This document shows, in pieces, positions 4,277-16,568 of a DNA stretch of 64,000 nt (its first letter is position 1; each line of letters opens with the position of its first letter). This DNA comes from Candidatus Woesearchaeota archaeon (GTDB taxonomy: Archaea > Nanobdellota > Nanobdellia > SCGC-AAA011-G17 > JACPIM01). Under the pieces are notes generated by a model. The model saw only the letters and a list, made by a program, of their open reading frames with translations. It was not told the DNA's origin and did no database searches. The DNA lies in NCBI GenBank assembly GCA_043817645.1, contig JBDRGP010000029.1:58226-122225 (forward strand), given 5' to 3'. The position numbers and the translations under genes were made by a program.

Positions 4277-4889
4277 TTTCTATAAGTCTCTTATAATCAT
4301 CAATCTTTTTAAAATCTATCTTTTCTCCAAACACTTCTTCAATATGCTTCGCATCTTCTAAATCCTTATCAGATTTTAAATAATACTTCTTGAAGGCTAT
4401 TTGCTTCTCCAATGAAGAAACATAAACCTCACTAAGTTTAGTTATAACAGTAATCCTATCGCTGAACGTTTCTTTTGCTAACCTATCTTTCGCAACTTTA
4501 ACTTCAAAATTTGGAATAGTTTCATTTTTTAAAGCAAAGCGTATTGCCAGATCATCCATTAGATATTTATACATTTCATCAACATTACTCGTATTTAAAC
4601 ACCAGAATCCATTTTCTATTAAATCACTACAAAGAAGATTAAACTTCTCTTTATTTACTTCCTTAATAAAAACGTCTACGTCCTCAGTAGACCTGGACCT
4701 CCCAAACAAAATAGAAACATATCCGCTAACAATAACGTAATCTGTATGCTTTTCCAGTATTTTTGTAAACTTGACCACAAATCTATCTAATTCATTTATG
4801 ACCTTGTCTAACCTTATAGTGCTCTTGTCAATAAATTCCATAGAATAAATAAAGTCTTTAATTTTATAAACCCTGCGCGTGTTTGTCAC
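4263..4889 (-). CDS. Nucleotidyltransferase-fold protein (Pol-beta-like NTase domain)
   Basis: 208 aa. VIVSGYVSILFGRSRSTEDVDVFI fits the hG[GS]x9-13Dh[DE]h NTase signature. Confidence 0.55.
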   Translation of the reverse strand: MTNTRRVYKIKDFIYSMEFIDKSTIRLDKVINELDRFVVKFTKILEKHTDYVIVSGYVSILFGRSRSTEDVDVFIKEVNKEKFNLLCSDLIENGFWCLNTSNVDEMYKYLMDDLAIRFALKNETIPNFEVKVAKDRLAKETFSDRITVITKLSEVYVSSLEKQIAFKKYYLKSDKDLEDAKHIEEVFGEKIDFKKIDDYKRLIENEKT

Positions 4890-4962
4890 GTATGCGTCGT
4901 TCAGAAAATATATATTGAAGAATACATAACAAAATAATACCAGTAAGGCCTAACTAAAACAA

Positions 4963-5223
4963 ATGGAAATCAAAAAGAAAGCCTGGCCAGAATTATTCCA
5001 AGCTGTTTTAGAAGGAAAAAAGAAATTTGATCTTAGATTGGCAGATTTTGAATGCGCTCCAGGAGATACACTAATTCTTGAAGAATGGGATCCAGATACT
5101 AAATCCTACACAGGAAGAAAAATAGAAAAGAAAATAACCTATATCCTTAAAACAAAAGACCTAAAATTTTGGCCTAAGGAAGATATAGAAAAACACGGAT
5201 TTCAGGTCATGTCTTTTGAATAA
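4963..5223 (+). CDS. DUF3850 / ASCH-PUA-like small RNA-binding-fold protein
   Basis: 86 aa. WPELFQAVLEGKKKFDLRLADFECAPGDTLILEEWDPDTKSYTGRKIEKKITYIL matches the conserved DUF3850 pattern (WPEYFEAV..GKKTFE.R..D..F.VGD.L.L.EY). Confidence 0.6.
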   Translation: MEIKKKAWPELFQAVLEGKKKFDLRLADFECAPGDTLILEEWDPDTKSYTGRKIEKKITYILKTKDLKFWPKEDIEKHGFQVMSFE

Positions 5224-5227
5224 TATT

Positions 5228-5370
5228 CAAGTCTTACCAGCAATACAATTAGCACATAAACTTCTTTCTCTACTAAAGCACAAATCACACACTAAAGACC
5301 CACAGCGTATACAACTATTCTCACCTATATTCTTACCACACGCAATACAGATTTTAACCTGCTCGACCAT
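5228..5370 (-). CDS. Small zinc-ribbon protein (four CxxC pairs), not in the ORF track
   Basis: The reverse-strand translation is MVEQVKICIACGKNIGENSCIRCGSLVCDLCFSRERSLCANCIAGKT (47 aa). Confidence 0.4.
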
Positions 5371-5414
5371 ATAATTTCATAACAGTTATATACTATTTAA
5401 TCCTTTCTTTTCGT

Positions 5415-6263
5415 ATGTCTCAGGACGTAATATTTTACTATGTAAAGGTATTTCCAAAACTAAAGAAATTCCTAAAAAACAGGGAAATAGCCACCATTAT
5501 GAAGCTAAAAGACACTGAAATAGTAAGAAGAGGCTCAAATCACCCTCCTTTATACATAAAAGACCTAAAAAAAATCAACAAAAAGTTCCAGGAACTAAGA
5601 AAAGGCAACATCCACCTAAAAGACATAGAATCCCAATTGTCCAATATCCAAATAAAAATTTGGCAATATTTCGTTCCTAGAAAACTCATAGAGCTACATT
5701 ACGCAGTCAATCAAGAACACCCAAATAAACCCTTAGAAAGAGTATATTTTGACATAGACAGAAAAGACATTCCAGCAGAAAAAGCACAATTAGTAGCCCT
5801 AAAATTAATAGAAACCATAAAAAAAGATAAAACCTTCAGATTAGAGTATAAAATATTTCCTATGTGGACAGGAAACTCCTTCCATATATACCTTTTATTA
5901 AAAAAGAAAATTCCTCATTCTTTTTATGAAAAAAACTTCCATGTAGATATAAACCACCAAAAAGACTCCTTTACTGGAAGATGGGCTCTTAAAATAAACA
6001 AAGAACTAAAAAACATTAAAGTAGTAGCAGGCCATCAGAAAAAACAAGGCTATATCAACATAGATCCTTCACAATCACCATCAGGTAAAATTTCTCGTTC
6101 TCCCCTTTCCTTATACATAAAAAATTATTCTTCAATAAGGGGTATTGCCCTCCCCTTAACCATAGAAGACTTAAAAAATAAAAACCTAATAAAAGAATTA
6201 AGGGGTTACACTATAGAAAAAGTTATAAAAAATCTCAATAAACTAGCTAAAAAATTACCATGA
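5415..6263 (+). CDS. Archaeo-eukaryotic primase (AEP) catalytic-subunit-like protein (PriS-like)
   Basis: 282 aa. It has a motif I DxD (RVYFDIDRKD), a motif II SGxxxH-like (MWTGNSFHIY) about 40 residues later, and a motif III hD (YINIDPS). The spacing is consistent with PriS. Confidence 0.5.
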   Translation: MSQDVIFYYVKVFPKLKKFLKNREIATIMKLKDTEIVRRGSNHPPLYIKDLKKINKKFQELRKGNIHLKDIESQLSNIQIKIWQYFVPRKLIELHYAVNQEHPNKPLERVYFDIDRKDIPAEKAQLVALKLIETIKKDKTFRLEYKIFPMWTGNSFHIYLLLKKKIPHSFYEKNFHVDINHQKDSFTGRWALKINKELKNIKVVAGHQKKQGYINIDPSQSPSGKISRSPLSLYIKNYSSIRGIALPLTIEDLKNKNLIKELRGYTIEKVIKNLNKLAKKLP

Positions 6264-12593: not shown

Positions 12594-12926
12594 ATGGAAA
12601 ATAAATATACACCACTGACTTTTATTAAAAATGTTAGAAAAATGGGTTTACCTATGGCTTTTGCGGAAGATTTAAGAGCGACTGCTAGGAGTGAATATGC
12701 AATTGAGAGAAAAACTGAGAGTTTAGCTTCTAAAGTAGGGTTCTCCGAAGAAAATGCAAAGGGGTTAGGAAGCCTTGCTGCCACAGGACATGCTTTAGCG
12801 ACACTCCCTGCCTTAGTTGCAGGTCTTGCAGTTGTTGTTCCATGTGCTTTAGTTTCTAATGTTTATAAAATATCAAGGATGACAAACCGAGCTATGAAAA
12901 ATCCTTCAGCACAACCATCTGTATAA
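12594..12926 (+). CDS. Hypothetical protein, compositionally GC-richer than its surroundings
   Basis: 110 aa, Ala/Leu-rich C-terminus. Local GC is visibly higher. Confidence 0.3.
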   Translation: MENKYTPLTFIKNVRKMGLPMAFAEDLRATARSEYAIERKTESLASKVGFSEENAKGLGSLAATGHALATLPALVAGLAVVVPCALVSNVYKISRMTNRAMKNPSAQPSV

Positions 12927-12992
12927 GGATAATTATAAGGCAAGATTTTTCTCTCTTTCTTATTTTTTTATATTGTTTATATCCAAAAGACC

Positions 12993-13010
12993 TTACAGCT
13001 CACAAAAAAC
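12993..13010. repeat. 18-bp direct repeat TTACAGCTCACAAAAAAC, left copy (right copy at 15218-15235)
   Basis: The 18-mer is identical at both sites. The left copy is part of an 8-bp-stem hairpin (acagctca...tgagctgt). Confidence 0.6.
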
Positions 13011-13085
13011 TGAGCTGTAAACTTAGCGTCATCTGTTCTTATTAGATTTCGACAGATTTTTAAACTTCGGGTTCCTAATAATTTT

Positions 13086-13244
13086 ATGAAAGTTATGAAA
13101 GTGGTTGATAAAAAAGTGGGAAATACGACTTATTTCAAATATAGGATCAATCTACCGAAAGAGGCAGTTGAGAAACTAAATCTCCTCGATAAAAATCTAA
13201 AAGTGAAAGTTGAGAAAGGCAAGATTATAATAGAGAAGGAGTAG
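13086..13244 (+). CDS. AbrB/SpoVT (swapped-hairpin) family small DNA-binding protein, not in the ORF track
   Basis: The translation is MKVMKVVDKKVGNTTYFKYRINLPKEAVEKLNLLDKNLKVKVEKGKIIIEKE (52 aa). This resembles AbrB/MazE-type looped-hinge-helix domains. Confidence 0.45.
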   Translation: MKVMKVVDKKVGNTTYFKYRINLPKEAVEKLNLLDKNLKVKVEKGKIIIEKE

Positions 13245-13277
13245 CAATTCGGGTACCGATAAGTTTATATAGTTCGG

Positions 13278-14156
13278 GTGCCTAATTATAGCATGAAAGA
13301 TGCTATAAAATGTAAACATTGTTCAAGTTCGAACTTTTGCAAGAAAGGATTTAGAAAGACAGATTATCGAGGGAAAATTCAAAAATATTATTGTAAAAAC
13401 TGTAAGAGATTCTTTACAAATGATGAGGGGTTTTATAGAATGAGATTTAATCCTAAAACGATAACCATGTCTGTTGATATGTATTTATCAAATCTATCAT
13501 CAAGAAAGATGAGAAACCAATTAACAAGGCACTTCTCGATAAAAGCCAGTCACATGACTATACTAGACTGGGTTAGAAGATATAGCTTGAAAGTTCATAA
13601 GTTTGTTGAGAACTTAGGTTACAATCTTGGAAATCATTTTTATGCAGATGAAACGGAGATTAATAGATTAGGACACAGAGATAATTTCTGGGCTTGTGTT
13701 GATTGGGACACAAGAATGATAACAGGAATACATTACTCTGTTGCTACAAATATAAAAGAAGCAACAGTTTTCATACAGAAATCAGTTAGCAAAGGAAAAC
13801 CAAAATACATTCAAACAGATTCGGCTCAGTTTTACCCGAAAGCGTTCAAGAAATTATTTTATTCAAATAAAATTGGTGGCTTGGTAGTAGAGCATAAAAT
13901 ACAAAATGTTAGAAAAACTAAGATACATAACTATAAGATAGAAACCGTTTTCATGAAAATAAAAGATAGAGTCCATGATTTTAGGGGACTAAAGGCCTTA
14001 TGGTCTGCTCCAATAATCATGACTGGTTTAACAATACAGCATAATTTCATAGAACCTCATTGTAATAAACAAGAGTTTCCTTGTAACCTTGCTGGAGTTG
14101 ATTTAGGTTTAAAAGAAAACAGATGGTTGGATTTAATAAGGATGAGTTCACGATGA
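13278..14156 (+). CDS. IS6-family transposase (archaeal type with N-terminal zinc finger)
   Basis: 292 aa. The N-terminal CKHCSSSNFC...CKNCKRF is a Zn finger. The DDE region includes ADETEI, and length and organisation are typical of archaeal IS6. Confidence 0.7.
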   Translation: MPNYSMKDAIKCKHCSSSNFCKKGFRKTDYRGKIQKYYCKNCKRFFTNDEGFYRMRFNPKTITMSVDMYLSNLSSRKMRNQLTRHFSIKASHMTILDWVRRYSLKVHKFVENLGYNLGNHFYADETEINRLGHRDNFWACVDWDTRMITGIHYSVATNIKEATVFIQKSVSKGKPKYIQTDSAQFYPKAFKKLFYSNKIGGLVVEHKIQNVRKTKIHNYKIETVFMKIKDRVHDFRGLKALWSAPIIMTGLTIQHNFIEPHCNKQEFPCNLAGVDLGLKENRWLDLIRMSSR

Positions 14157-14170
14157 TAAACAGTTATTCA

Positions 14171-15103
14171 TTAAACTTTTCGCCACACATCCCTGTATAA
14201 TTTAGTGGGAGTTCCTTTGCCCTCCCAATCTCTGAATTGTTTCATCCACGCCTGGGATACGAATAGATCATCTAGAAATCCTATTGTCTGTTTAGGGCTC
14301 TTTACAAATTTACCTGCCAAAACTGCCCATGCCTTTGGATTAACCATAGATGTCCTTTTTCCATCATTAAGCCACGTCTCAGAAGTTATATGATAGTCTT
14401 CGGTTCCATCTTCTCTACTTTCAAGCTCAAAGTAACCTCTTGCACACTCCCCAAGTTGATTCGTAGTAGGATACCACCCTCCAAAATCTCTAGCTATTTG
14501 AGCGCAATGATAATCCAAGGTCCCTCTTTTAAAATTGCTTGGCCCCTTCACAATCTCCTTTGGATCAAAAGAGAATCCATCATTAAAGTGGACTATCGTG
14601 GTTGCAAATTTTCCTTTTGGCTTGAGAATCATGTGAACTAATTTAAACATTTCTTGATATATTTGATCTTGCTTACCTTCTACAGCATCTTGAACTTGTA
14701 CAAAGTGTTCAGCAGATCCATTAGCAATAACTCCATCAAAAGAATTAGCCCAAGAATCCGGCATATTTCTGTAATTCATTAACCTAACATCCAAACCATT
14801 CTTAACACACCTTCTAGCTTGTTTTTCTGATACGGTGATACCAACTGCAATGGTCCCCCGGTTCTCTGCGGTTTTTAAAACTCTTCCATATCCACATCCA
14901 ATATCCAGAATTCTAGCTCCGCTACCACAACCTATCTGATCAAGTAACCAATTAGCTTGGTTTTCTTGAGCTTTCTGGTATGATTGCTCAGGATCTCCGT
15001 TGTAAACCCCATCCGTAAAATCTGAAATCCCGCAAGAGGCAAATGCATCTAAGAAATCATAGCAACTCATAACTGCCTGAGAGGTATTTTCTATATCTTC
15101 CAT
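14171..15103 (-). CDS. SAM-dependent methyltransferase of the cyclopropane-fatty-acyl-phospholipid synthase / mycolic-acid cyclopropane synthase family
   Basis: 310 aa. The SAM motif ARILDIGCGYGRV is followed by TIAVGITVSEKQ and later SFDGVIANGSAEHF. The arrangement is collinear with CmaA/Cfa enzymes. Confidence 0.65.
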   Translation of the reverse strand: MEDIENTSQAVMSCYDFLDAFASCGISDFTDGVYNGDPEQSYQKAQENQANWLLDQIGCGSGARILDIGCGYGRVLKTAENRGTIAVGITVSEKQARRCVKNGLDVRLMNYRNMPDSWANSFDGVIANGSAEHFVQVQDAVEGKQDQIYQEMFKLVHMILKPKGKFATTIVHFNDGFSFDPKEIVKGPSNFKRGTLDYHCAQIARDFGGWYPTTNQLGECARGYFELESREDGTEDYHITSETWLNDGKRTSMVNPKAWAVLAGKFVKSPKQTIGFLDDLFVSQAWMKQFRDWEGKGTPTKLYRDVWRKV

Positions 15104-15217
15104 CTTAAAGATTGAATTTTATAAATACTTATAAACATTTATCTGATGGAATGATATAAAATTTTAACTAAGATATATCATCTAAAGATCATCTTACCAG
15201 TCTAGATGACGTTTACT

Positions 15218-15235
15218 TTACAGCTCACAAAAAAC
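15218..15235. repeat. 18-bp direct repeat TTACAGCTCACAAAAAAC, right copy
   Basis: It is identical to 12993-13010. An adjacent 7-bp inverted repeat tcatcta/tagatga lies at 15178-15209. Confidence 0.6.
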
Positions 15236-15283
15236 ATATATTTAAATACCCAAATTCCCATATTCTTAGTACAATGAAACGAG

Positions 15284-16471
15284 TTGATTGTTTTCATAAA
15301 TTCGTATTCTAGAGATTTTAATAGTTATAACTTTATTAAAAATCCCAAAAATAGTTTCCCCAAAAGTGGTCTAACCGTCAGAACGAAAACATTTAAATAT
15401 GCCAAAGTCTTTTATGAGTTTATGGAAAAAAGAGTGGTATTCCCAAAAGGGAAACAAAGGGAGTTTTTAGTCTCTTCAAGAAAAGAACTAAAACTAACCT
15501 GGCCGGAATTTGCTGAAAAAGTCGATACAAAAAGAAAAACTCTAGAAAAGGCCTATAGATATGAATATTGTTCGATGCCATATGGGGTTTTTTCTAAAAT
15601 AGTTAATGAAAGAAACATCAATAAAAAGAGACTTATTAGAGATTATAATATCAAAATAGTAAAAGGAAGTAGATATGGTGCAATTGGAAGGAAGGTGTTA
15701 GGAGAAAAAAGAGCGAAATTAGGCAATATCAACCTTTTATTTGAAAATTCTATACATCCATTTAACACTAGCGTTATAAAATTAAGCAAATATGATGAAA
15801 TTAAGAGAATAAAATTTCCAAATAAATTAACTCCAGAATTAGCTGAAGAAATCGGCATGCATATAGGAGACGGTTTTTTATCCAAAAGAAGGAACGAATA
15901 TCGTTTAAAGGGGAATAAAAATAACGAAAAAGATTACTACAAATACTTCATCAAAAAGCTTTACAAGACTTTGTTTAATTTAGATATTAATCTAAAAGAA
16001 TATGAATCGACATATGGATTTGAAATAAGCTCAAAAGGTCTCTGGACATTTAAAAATAAAATTTTGGGTATTCCATCAGGGAAAAAAGATGATATAGATT
16101 TGCCCGCAATTATAAAAGTGAATGACAAAGATATCCTAACTTCATTTATCCGAGGAGTTTTTGACACAGATGGTTGTGTTAACTTCAAAAGTGGATACGG
16201 TCTAAAGGGATATTACCCAAGAATAGAGATAACAATGCTCTCAAAAGATTTAATAGGGAGCATATCGGAGATATTATATGCATTGGGATTAAAACCATAT
16301 AAGCATCAAGATAAACTAGGATATTGGCATATTACTTTAAATGGCTATGAAAGATTTGAAAGATATAATAAATTAATAGGATGGCATAATCCCAAACACT
16401 TAAGAAAGATAAAAAAATGGAAAAAACAATATCCAAAATTAGGAAAGGATGTAATGGTAGGGGTAGTGTAG
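15284..16471 (+). CDS. Free-standing LAGLIDADG homing endonuclease (two LAGLIDADG motifs) with a ~180-aa N-terminal extension
   Basis: The motifs are IGMHIGDGFL and IRGVFDTDGCV. The last ~5 codons and the stop run into the 5' end of the tRNA-His gene. Confidence 0.7.
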   Translation: MIVFINSYSRDFNSYNFIKNPKNSFPKSGLTVRTKTFKYAKVFYEFMEKRVVFPKGKQREFLVSSRKELKLTWPEFAEKVDTKRKTLEKAYRYEYCSMPYGVFSKIVNERNINKKRLIRDYNIKIVKGSRYGAIGRKVLGEKRAKLGNINLLFENSIHPFNTSVIKLSKYDEIKRIKFPNKLTPELAEEIGMHIGDGFLSKRRNEYRLKGNKNNEKDYYKYFIKKLYKTLFNLDINLKEYESTYGFEISSKGLWTFKNKILGIPSGKKDDIDLPAIIKVNDKDILTSFIRGVFDTDGCVNFKSGYGLKGYYPRIEITMLSKDLIGSISEILYALGLKPYKHQDKLGYWHITLNGYERFERYNKLIGWHNPKHLRKIKKWKKQYPKLGKDVMVGVV

Positions 16472-16546
16472 CCTGGTTAGTTTTTACCCAGAAAACACGC
16501 AAGTCTGTGGAGCTTGAGATCGCGGGTTCAAGTCCCGCCCCTTACC
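16456..16546 (+). tRNA. tRNA-His (anticodon GTG, 16507-16509) with encoded G-1 and an apparent ~14-nt insertion in the D-loop
   Basis: Folded by hand. G-1 pairs with C73. The acceptor is gtagggg/cccttac, and the D-stem is gtgt(16466-69)/acac(16495-98). The anticodon arm is caagt-CTGTGGA-gcttg, and the T-arm is gcggg-TTCAAGT-cccgc. 25 nt lie between the D-stem halves, and the insert can form a gtttt/aaaac hairpin. Confidence 0.6.
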
Positions 16547-16568
16547 CGTTTTCAAAAAAGAGGTCAAA

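Follow-up and report, generated by a model that had tools for sequence, protein, structure and literature searches.

Gene content of the element

A complete insertion sequence (IS) of 2217 bp lies on the plus strand at positions 13011-15227 of the window, the whole 64-kb stretch of DNA analysed here. A preliminary description of this DNA had named three genes in the segment, an AbrB-like mini-ORF, an IS6 transposase and a methyltransferase of the CFA-synthase type, and all three identifications hold. The AbrB/MazE-like mini-ORF of 52 aa (13086-13244, plus strand) has a TATA-like box at 13057-13064, 29 nt before its ATG. Its matches to AbrB/MazE profiles are sub-threshold (TIGR01439 at E 0.0075 and, for close relatives, PF04014 at E 1.7e-4). 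This small gene is kept in every autonomous family member examined, with a mean column identity of 85% over seven orthologues. The transposase of 287 aa (13293-14156, plus strand), with the ATG at 13293 also being the start chosen by gene callers, combines an N-terminal CxxC...CxxC zinc finger with an IS6-type DDE domain. It matches PF13610 with an E value of 2e-12 (47.8 bits, cut-off 27) and covers positions 1-201 of the 202 in NF033587 transpos_IS6 with an E value of 7e-26, although the score of 91 bits is below the curated equivalog cut-off of 125. The N-terminus resembles the IS1/IS1595 Zn domain (E 0.007), and homologues of the protein fall into 710 clusters.

The third gene, on the minus strand at 14171-15103, encodes a class I SAM methyltransferase of 310 aa of the CMAS/CFA-synthase type (PF02353 CMAS, E 3e-16). 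Its best match in the PDB is the CFA synthase 6bqc (E 1e-7), and its closest named relatives are found in Patescibacteria (~53% identity) and Planctomycetes (~45%). The segment had been described as a GC-richer block of 2.2 kb; this is true of the methyltransferase gene only (37-41%), whereas the transposase half, at 31-33%, is like its surroundings.

Both internal promoters are accompanied by an operator-like 12-mer, TTCGGGTTCCTA, which has three copies in the window, all within the element, against 0.01 expected. Copy 1 is at 13066-13077 (plus strand). The other two, at 13248-13259 and 13273-13284 (plus strand), stand on either side of the TATA-like box that we read from the sequence at 13264-13271, 29 nt before the transposase ATG at 13293. 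The three copies co-vary within elements of the family. The conserved AbrB-like gene together with these co-varying sites suggests autoregulation, in which an element-encoded protein, for example the AbrB-like one, would act at the TTCGGGTNCC sites of the two internal promoters.

Boundaries and copies of the mobile unit

The ends of the unit are defined by comparison with other assemblies, all of which are metagenome assemblies. In BLAST searches, sequence identity to four other contigs begins exactly at 13011 and stops exactly at 15227. In addition, stand-alone contigs of exactly 2217 bp with the identical sequence occur in two assemblies (L005/L029 and L038). The unit is bounded by imperfect terminal inverted repeats (TIRs) of 24 nt that start with TGAGCTGTAAA. 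The left repeat IRL, TGAGCTGTAAACTTAGCGTCATCT, occupies 13011-13034 on the plus strand; it belongs to an inverted pair (I1) of 37 nt with 76% complementarity, shows weaker similarity up to 13047 and is conserved across the family. The right repeat IRR reads TGAGCTGTAAAGTAAACGTCATCT on the minus strand and occupies 15204-15227. IS6 TIRs had been looked for near 13262 and at 14157-14175, and none are present there.

A second genomic site carries the 2217-bp unit with 100% identity, methyltransferase included, which bears out the earlier view of the segment as a discrete mobile block containing this gene. At copy 2 the left flank ends in ...TTATTTTA and the right flank begins with TTATTTTA..., and no 18-mer is present. 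The left junction of the window copy is also present in an independent assembly (L001), and one public contig (L002; GCA_018812805.1, JAHJCX010000020.1) fuses the flanks of the two copies, its left-hand flank being that of copy 2 and its right-hand flank that of copy 1; this contig may be a chimera or a real IS-mediated rearrangement. The block is thus a single insertion sequence of a DPANN archaeon that was active recently and has the methyltransferase as cargo.

Composite structure of the 18-bp repeat

Exact copies of TTACAGCTCACAAAAAAC at 12993-13010 and 15218-15235 were given in the preliminary description, and a search of the window reproduced them; the rest of the 64 kb holds no further copy with up to 3 mismatches allowed. 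The right 18-mer consists of the last 10 nt of IRR followed by an 8-bp target-site duplication, CAAAAAAC, at 15228-15235. The left 18-mer consists of a solo 10-nt copy of the IR tip, which reads TTACAGCTCA (TGAGCTGTAA on the opposite strand) at 12993-13002 on the plus strand, followed by the same CAAAAAAC at 13003-13010. This left duplication abuts IRL, and the solo tip copy, which does not belong to the element, is separated from IRL by exactly 8 bp. The 18-bp repeat is composite because the unit ends at its TIRs and has made an 8-bp duplication upon insertion. The relic is missing from the left flank of copy 2.

The left 18-mer does sit in a perfect hairpin, as had been noted, with a 10-bp stem and an 8-nt loop at 12993-13020. 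Its predicted DNA fold of -8.4 kcal/mol has a z score of -5.3, and none of 200 shuffles was equally stable. Two IR tips face each other across the 8-bp target, and the hairpin is therefore a by-product of this arrangement. The 7-bp inverted repeat reported close to the right 18-mer is likewise present (TCATCTA at 15178 and TAGATGA at 15203).

The relic agrees with the IR consensus at 10 of 11 tip positions and at 15 of 24 positions overall. The probability that all 10 positions agree by chance at one given place is ~6e-7, calculated from base composition. The arrangement of an end, 8 bp and another end is found at three loci, namely the window (12993-13020), L027 and L014. At L027, the IR of another element (18/24 match) is abutted by a 676-bp NUDIX element, which has a duplication of its own, ATAAATAG, and at L014 an intact IRL is preceded, at a distance of 8 bp, by a decayed IR (17/24 match). 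Pure chance was rejected as the source of the 10-mer, given the probability of ~6e-7 per site and the three independent cases.

We propose that the relic is the remnant of another family end that formerly stood at this spot, so that the same 8-bp target would have been used twice, with most of the earlier element lost afterwards. Re-use of a target is to be expected because the family picks its targets very precisely. A partner left end, which would assign the 110-aa gene on the left to an older element as its cargo, was searched for with 8 of 24 mismatches allowed, and no IR-like sequence was found elsewhere in the window. No homologues of this 110-aa neighbour were found, leaving it an orphan. 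At L027 and L018, a search for the other end of the second element found none. No empty-site allele was recovered. A gapped pattern over both flanks had no match in JGI metagenomes, and exact-protein look-up of either flanking gene yielded no element-free allele, the contigs breaking at the element. As a whole, the locus is very probably best explained by a single, recently active IS6-like element with an 8-bp duplication and a composite 18-mer that includes an IR-tip relic.

A family with variable cargo and a preferred target

The element is a member of a large IS6-like family that is common in DPANN archaea. Eleven complete members, of 866-4106 bp, were collected, and perfect 8-bp duplications, unrelated in sequence, flank all 11. 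The family consists of a conserved core, the 52-aa AbrB-like ORF plus the zinc-finger/DDE transposase, and of a variable cargo. At the position taken by the methyltransferase, relatives carry complete restriction-modification systems, peptidases, regulators and others. Cargo between the element's own inverted repeats, such as the bacterial-type methyltransferase here, is routine in the family, through which genes are therefore likely to enter the reduced genomes of DPANN archaea. Transposition is probably catalysed by the DDE enzyme with 8-bp staggered cuts in the target, by analogy with IS6.

Next to the right duplication, the host promoter in the flank has a TATA-like box, TTTAAATA (15241-15248, plus strand), 5 nt from the target duplication, which is the preferred context of the family. 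Of 32 flanks, 16 have a TATA-like 8-mer at a distance of exactly 5 nt from the duplication, whereas the background frequency is 0.3% (P ~3e-32 versus random positions). Every other TATA offset is taken by at most 2 flanks, and the histogram has a single sharp peak. At least nine of the 11 complete insertions fit the rule, compared with 1.2% of intergenic positions (P ~3e-16), as do five of six out-of-sample insertions. Selection alone was rejected as the cause of the spacing, given the small share of intergenic positions that fit the rule and the one sharp offset peak. In flanks other than those with IR relics, the likeness to the IR tip peaks where the flank abuts the duplication, with a mean of 4.65 of 11 matches versus 2.1-3.9 elsewhere. 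The TATA cue and the element-end cue may be one and the same, because the preferred half-site, nnAnnTTTAWA, is similar to the tip of the IR, TGAGCTGTAAA.

Based on these observations, we tentatively propose, rating it just below an even chance, that the family has a built-in targeting rule. The duplication would begin just outside the BRE position of a leaderless archaeal promoter, 6 nt before its TATA box on the upstream side. Recognition would proceed either through DNA bound by TBP/TFB or through a BRE/TATA half-site that mimics the IR tip, and the 18-mer would record that one 8-bp target, defined by the promoter, was hit twice in succession. If this is true, the family would be a transposon system that inserts into safe havens and shuttles cargo, among it restriction-modification systems and bacterial-type enzymes, in tiny DPANN genomes. 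Active choice of the target would also provide a simple, testable model of the way in which a transposon can locate harmless sites within a very compact archaeal genome.

Alternative explanations

Two other readings of the block concern its limits, and we consider both very improbable. The preliminary description favoured att-site duplications or cassette boundaries over an IS6 8-bp duplication; on this reading, a site-specific recombinase would have integrated the 2.2-kb segment as a cassette between att-type cores. The exact 18-bp direct repeat that brackets the genes, with one copy in a hairpin, is in keeping with this reading. However, no integrase or recombinase domain is encoded in the block or its neighbours, and the sequence shared by the copies stops at the TIRs, so that it begins directly after the left 18-mer and reaches only 10 nt into the right one. 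The 8-bp duplications of unrelated sequence in 11 of 11 family members also speak against it. The second locus refutes it already, as the identical unit with the same genes lies there between TTATTTTA flanks, a different 8-bp repeat, without the 18-mer; the preliminary description had itself named the same genes without the repeat as a refuting observation. Still less probable, indeed barely credible, is that the methyltransferase gene belongs to the host and has a short IS with only a transposase as its neighbour, which would reduce the mobile unit to ~1.1 kb. Typical IS6 elements are short and have a single gene (PMC7986276), and the GC content of the methyltransferase gene is different. But there is no IR behind the stop codon of the transposase, IRR being reached only after the methyltransferase gene, and relatives have other cargo at the same position; the identity of the entire 2217 bp at two sites refutes this reading as well.

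The remaining alternatives concern the left 10-mer. It could be a chance or host pseudo-end that was bound by the transposase, with insertion one duplication-length away, as in IS911 and IS30; we regard this as unlikely, although it has several points in its favour. A given 10-mer is expected ~1-2 times per megabase, so the genome could offer such a site, and the non-relic flanks are most IR-tip-like just where they abut the duplication. Members of the IS3 and IS30 families that target TIRs are mentioned in PMC7986276. The relic spans just 10-13 nt, and a chance pseudo-end that attracted an insertion would look alike. However, the partners at L027 and L014 are real ends, though decayed or non-autonomous (18/24 and 17/24), and descent from an element is therefore the simpler reading for the window relic too. 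In addition, the relic and duplication in the window stand at the canonical distance from the TATA box, as expected of an earlier bona fide insertion. Less probable again, and in our view rather improbable, is that the junction is left from a head-to-tail tandem dimer or circle (IRR-spacer-IRL) whose left copy was deleted later. An IRR tip, 8 bp and IRL in succession, with a spacer of the duplication length, would fit copy-out/paste-in junctions, for which there are models in IS911 circles (PMC2909936) and in a scheme with two tandem copies in PMC7986276. Against this, the two abutting elements at L027 differ, one being the 676-bp NUDIX element and the other having another IR type, and therefore they do not form a dimer of one element, and no intact dimers were seen in ~408 kb of family loci. 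To our knowledge, IS6-type elements do not form circles. We therefore prefer the remnant of an earlier family end as the origin of the relic.

Comparison with known systems

The usual view of IS6 elements is that they are minimal, have no cargo and show little discrimination when choosing a target. According to PMC7986276, typical members measure 700-890 bp and have the transposase as their only gene. The present element lacks this simple organisation, having 2217 bp and three genes, with relatives of up to 4106 bp. It is like the archaeal IS6/IS26 branch (clades a-d in Harmer and Hall 2019, PMC6807381; clade A in Varani et al. 2021, PMC7986276) in its DDE transposase, which matches PF13610/NF033587 over the full length, and it shares with the IS6 family the 8-bp target duplication, here CAAAAAAC and TTATTTTA. 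PMC6807381 describes for archaeal members the catalytic signature E--F---K-R, which is present here as ETVFMKIKDR. IS6 TIRs are described as short and conserved, with a GG tip and cTGTt/caaa motifs, and those of archaeal members as longer and often without GG (PMC7986276; PMC6807381). The 24-nt TIRs of the present element agree with the consensus in having CTGT at positions 5-8, with AAA after it, but differ at the tip, which is TG. Two identical copies are compatible with replicative, cointegrate-forming IS6 transposition. Unlike the archaeal branch, the family has elements of 2.0-4.1 kb in place of 0.7-0.9 kb, a second conserved gene, the 52-aa AbrB-like one, and routine cargo. A further difference is the N-terminal zinc finger of its transposase, which the review reports for clostridial clade h.

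Target-site selection is strong in this family, and term searches in PMC6807381 and PMC7986276 gave no description of a sequence- or promoter-specific rule. A literature search in a limited collection returned nothing relevant on an IS6 family of DPANN archaea or on archaeal IS that target promoters. As far as our searches could tell, no earlier description of such a targeting rule for insertion sequences exists.

Among the IS6-family members listed in PMC7986276, ISDsp3 alone has a passenger gene. It resembles the present element as an IS6-type element with a non-transposition gene inside its TIRs (a transporter IS, 'tIS'). The methyltransferase likewise lies inside the TIRs, with 100% identity at both sites, and relatives have other cargo. 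However, ISDsp3 is a bacterial element present in a single copy, and its one passenger is hypothetical, whereas here a whole family carries diverse cargo.

The IR-targeted insertion of IS911/IS3 and IS30 and the targeted conservative integration of IS26 also place a new copy beside an existing end or IR-like sequence, with the ends facing each other (PMC7986276). The conservative route of IS26 gives no new duplication and leaves a shared boundary, whereas here an 8-bp spacer, the target duplication, separates the ends. Integron cassettes and the att sites of integrative elements have only the direct repeat at both ends in common with this locus. In those systems a recombinase is present and the repeat marks the unit boundaries; here neither is the case, and the repeat is absent from copy 2.

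Ty3 integrates at Pol III start sites and Tf1 at Pol II promoters. The likeness to the present family consists in a fixed position relative to core promoter elements, the avoidance of coding sequence and a compact genome; enzyme class, domain of life and mechanism differ. For the long repeat, the outcome is a correction, since it is a normal IS6-type duplication plus an IR relic and no new type of boundary. Three further points of interest are the routine cargo, the extra AbrB-like gene with its operator-like sites and the fixed spacing to TATA boxes and element ends.

Delimitation of the element

The 18-mer TTACAGCTCACAAAAAAC is present as exact copies at 12993-13010 and 15218-15235, and no further copy with up to three mismatches was found in the whole window. 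The left copy and the next 10 nt form a perfect hairpin (12993-13020) with a 10-bp stem and an 8-nt loop (-8.4 kcal/mol, z = -5.3), and a 7-bp inverted repeat lies close to the right copy (TCATCTA at 15178, TAGATGA at 15203); the direct repeats, the hairpin and the short inverted repeat were noted in the preliminary description. A repeat search revealed that 13011-13047 and 15191-15227 form an imperfect inverted repeat, perfect over the first 11 nt and matching at 20 of the first 24 positions. With these arms as left and right terminal inverted repeats (TIRs; IRL and IRR), the element spans 13011-15227 (2217 bp), and the 8 bp CAAAAAAC stand as a direct repeat on either side of it (13003-13010 and 15228-15235). 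Therefore, the 18-mer is composite, and it is explained as a target duplication joined to the probable relic of an inverted repeat tip. The right copy consists of the final 10 nt of IRR followed by the duplication, and the left copy of an extra copy of the same 10 nt outside the element, again followed by the duplication.

Contigs carrying the same transposase and methyltransferase were found by exact-protein look-ups. By BLAST, 100% identity starts exactly at 13011 and stops exactly at 15227, and a stand-alone contig of exactly 2217 bp, containing the element alone, exists in two assemblies (L005/L029 and L038). At a second site the identical unit (copy 2) is preceded by GTTGTTATTTTA (L002, L003, L028, L036) and followed by TTATTTTACAAT (L004, L032, L037). 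Copy 2 is a separate insertion for which TTATTTTA is the 8-bp target duplication, and TTACAGCTCA is absent from its flanks. The window left junction including the 10-mer also occurs in an independent Logan contig (L001). Identity that ends at these limits, together with the second copy, makes the methyltransferase cargo inside the element, so that the block is indeed mobile with its methyltransferase. The earlier reading of the 18-mer as att sites or cassette boundaries is not sustained, as the unit ends at the TIRs and copy 2 has the same genes with TTATTTTA and without the 18-mer; the object is a cargo-carrying IS6-like element. In one retrieved contig (L002; GCA_018812805.1, JAHJCX010000020.1, 5711-7943), the element has the copy 2 left flank (TTATTTTA) on one side and the right flank of the window insertion (CAAAAAAC) on the other; this contig is either a chimeric assembly over the repeat or a real IS-mediated recombinant.

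Directly left of the insertion, a 110-aa gene (12594-12926, + strand) found no homologue but itself among 5.8 billion protein clusters. To the right, ARAGORN predicts a 91-nt tRNA-Gly(CCC) at 16457-16547, likely with an intron since it is unreported by Rfam at the gathering score; it overlaps the 3' end of a LAGLIDADG-domain ORF with its stop at 16471.

Genes of the element

The element encodes a 52-aa ORF starting at 13086 with sub-threshold similarity to AbrB/MazE, a transposase starting at 13293 that matches PF13610 and NCBIfam transpos_IS6, and, on the minus strand, a 310-aa class I SAM methyltransferase of the CMAS/CFA-synthase type (14171-15103). These identities agree with those first assigned, whereas the GC enrichment described for the whole block applies to the methyltransferase gene only (37-41%, against about 31% for the remaining element). 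The nearest named relatives of the methyltransferase are from Patescibacteria/CPR bacteria (~53% identity) and Planctomycetes (~45%), not archaea, which together with the GC contrast suggests that the cargo was acquired across domains.

TATA-like boxes at 13057-13064 and 13264-13271 each lie 29 nt ahead of an ATG (13086 and 13293, respectively). The neighbouring host genes have the same TATA-ATG spacing, and this spacing suggests that the internal genes may give leaderless transcripts. In addition, TTCGGGTNCCKA occurs three times at the internal promoters (13066-13077, 13248-13259 and 13273-13284; 0.01 expected). In diverged relatives the three copies co-vary, reading TTCAGGTACC in L015 and TTCATGTRCC in L040, a pattern expected for sites of an element-encoded protein. 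This suggests that they are putative operators, for which the AbrB-like protein would be the obvious candidate binder.

Related elements in DPANN archaea

A search with the inverted repeat written as an IUPAC pattern yielded 21 loci from metagenomes and 7 from GTDB genomes, the latter from records titled Pacearchaeota, Woesearchaeota or Nanoarchaeota, and three more homologous transposases were traced to their own contigs. Eleven complete elements of 866-4106 bp were delimited, all eleven with perfect 8-bp duplications of unrelated sequence. Ten encode a transposase, the exception being an 866-bp non-autonomous derivative (L016, 735-1600). The 52-aa ORF accompanies the transposase in nine of these ten (67-88% identity) and is unconfirmed in L053. 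The transposases have 287-295 aa, a CxxC...CxxC motif, a DDE domain and the archaeal signature E--F---K-R (PMC6807381); 710 homologue clusters were found at E <= 1e-10, named by NCBI, where named, 'IS1/IS6 family transposase'.

The cargo varies between the same TIRs and includes complete restriction-modification systems: an NgoPII-type endonuclease with a C5 DNA methylase, Vsr and an HNH protein (L015, 4911-9016), and an N6/N4 methylase with an MvaI/BcnI endonuclease (L040, 4272-7896). Others carry an LD-carboxypeptidase (L035, 5336-7579), a TrmB regulator and a methyltransferase (L033, 2678-6113), or a CAP-domain protein and membrane proteins (L020; L043, 4718-8307). A 676-bp non-autonomous element in L027 carries a NUDIX gene only.

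Target selection next to TATA boxes

We regard the target rule, which was unexpected and lies outside the original finding, as the most interesting result. For 32 unique element ends (L012-L059 and the window), the sequences outside the element were aligned. In 16 of these flanks a TATA-like 8-mer (TTTATAAA, TATAAAAA or TTTTTAAA), usually with GG in front, begins after a gap of exactly 5 nt from the duplication (random-position background 0.3%, P ~3e-32); at each of the 44 other offsets, at most two flanks have one. Half of the flanks would be the expected share if a box stood on just one side of nearly every insertion. At least 9 of the 11 complete elements have the box at this distance, against 1.2% of intergenic positions (P ~3e-16), and the rule is obeyed by five of six insertions found later via different transposase homologues. 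Ten of 17 such flanks contain a substantial outward-reading ORF, whose ATG is 29-32 nt away from the start of the TATA box, a spacing by which the box is usually the core promoter of a neighbouring and apparently leaderless host gene. Directly upstream of this box, where a BRE would be expected, lies the element.

The preference extends beyond the box: position -14 is A in 27 of the 32 flanks and position -11 is T in 27, TATA-less flanks included. In outward orientation, the half-site preferred beside the duplication is nnAnnTTTAWA, which has A3, T6, T8, A9, A10 and A11 in common with the IR tip TGAGCTGTAAA. Flanks other than IR relics are most tip-like at this register, where on average 4.65 of 11 positions match (2.1-3.9 at other registers). 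The transposase might treat a tip-like target as a pseudo-end, and we speculate that this one mechanism could serve insertion beside TATA boxes as well as beside IRs.

Next to the window insertion, ATATA separates the right duplication from the box TTTAAATA (15241-15248). This box points right, but in the adjoining sequence (15241-15283) the first ATG (15274) opens a 12-codon ORF only; another TATA-like box, at 15392, belongs to the LAGLIDADG gene and precedes the ATG of that gene (15422) by 30 nt.

Probable insertion next to a resident end

For the extra 10 nt at 12993-13002, a chance match is excluded, since the flank composition gives P ~6e-7 for agreement at all ten positions at one given site. 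An earlier element is consistent with the box 5 nt past the right duplication: with the present element removed in thought, the relic and duplication stand at the canonical distance, and would be the expected trace of a genuine earlier insertion at this promoter. This architecture is repeated at two other loci. The L027 element (4840-5515) has the duplication ATAAATAG on both sides, and directly after the right copy, at 5524, comes an IR that belongs to another element (whole arrangement 4832-5547). L014 has a decayed solo IR with 17 of 24 consensus matches and, across 8 bp (GTTTTAAT), an intact left end. Thus, in the window and at two other loci, the distance between two ends is exactly one duplication length. 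The 8 bp beside a resident end were probably re-used as target, which would give [X][A][X][B][X] irrespective of the order of insertion, and in the window A would since have been reduced to 10-13 nt. No empty site was recovered by exact look-ups of flanking genes, a gapped two-flank pattern or a homologue search, so that any order of events and the descent of the relic from an element are inferences. Within the window, the relic has no left end with which it could pair.

Comparison with known systems

A 2021 review of IS6 elements gives them 700-890 bp and 8-bp duplications, with a passenger gene in one member only, ISDsp3 (PMC7986276). The present element agrees with them in duplication length and enzyme, but does not match their 'minimal' architecture. 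It shares the enzyme, the 8-bp duplication and a CTGT-containing TIR with archaeal IS6-like elements, among which it would be placed on these sequence features, and which may merit a separate family according to Harmer and Hall (PMC6807381). It differs from them in size, the second conserved gene, the zinc finger, the TG tip, routine cargo and target selection. In the limited collection of literature searched, neither this DPANN family nor TATA-adjacent targeting by an archaeal IS was described. End-adjacent insertion has precedents in the targeted conservative integration of IS26 and in the targeting of TIRs by IS3 and IS30 (PMC7986276), whereas here the spacing between the two ends equals a fresh 8-bp duplication.
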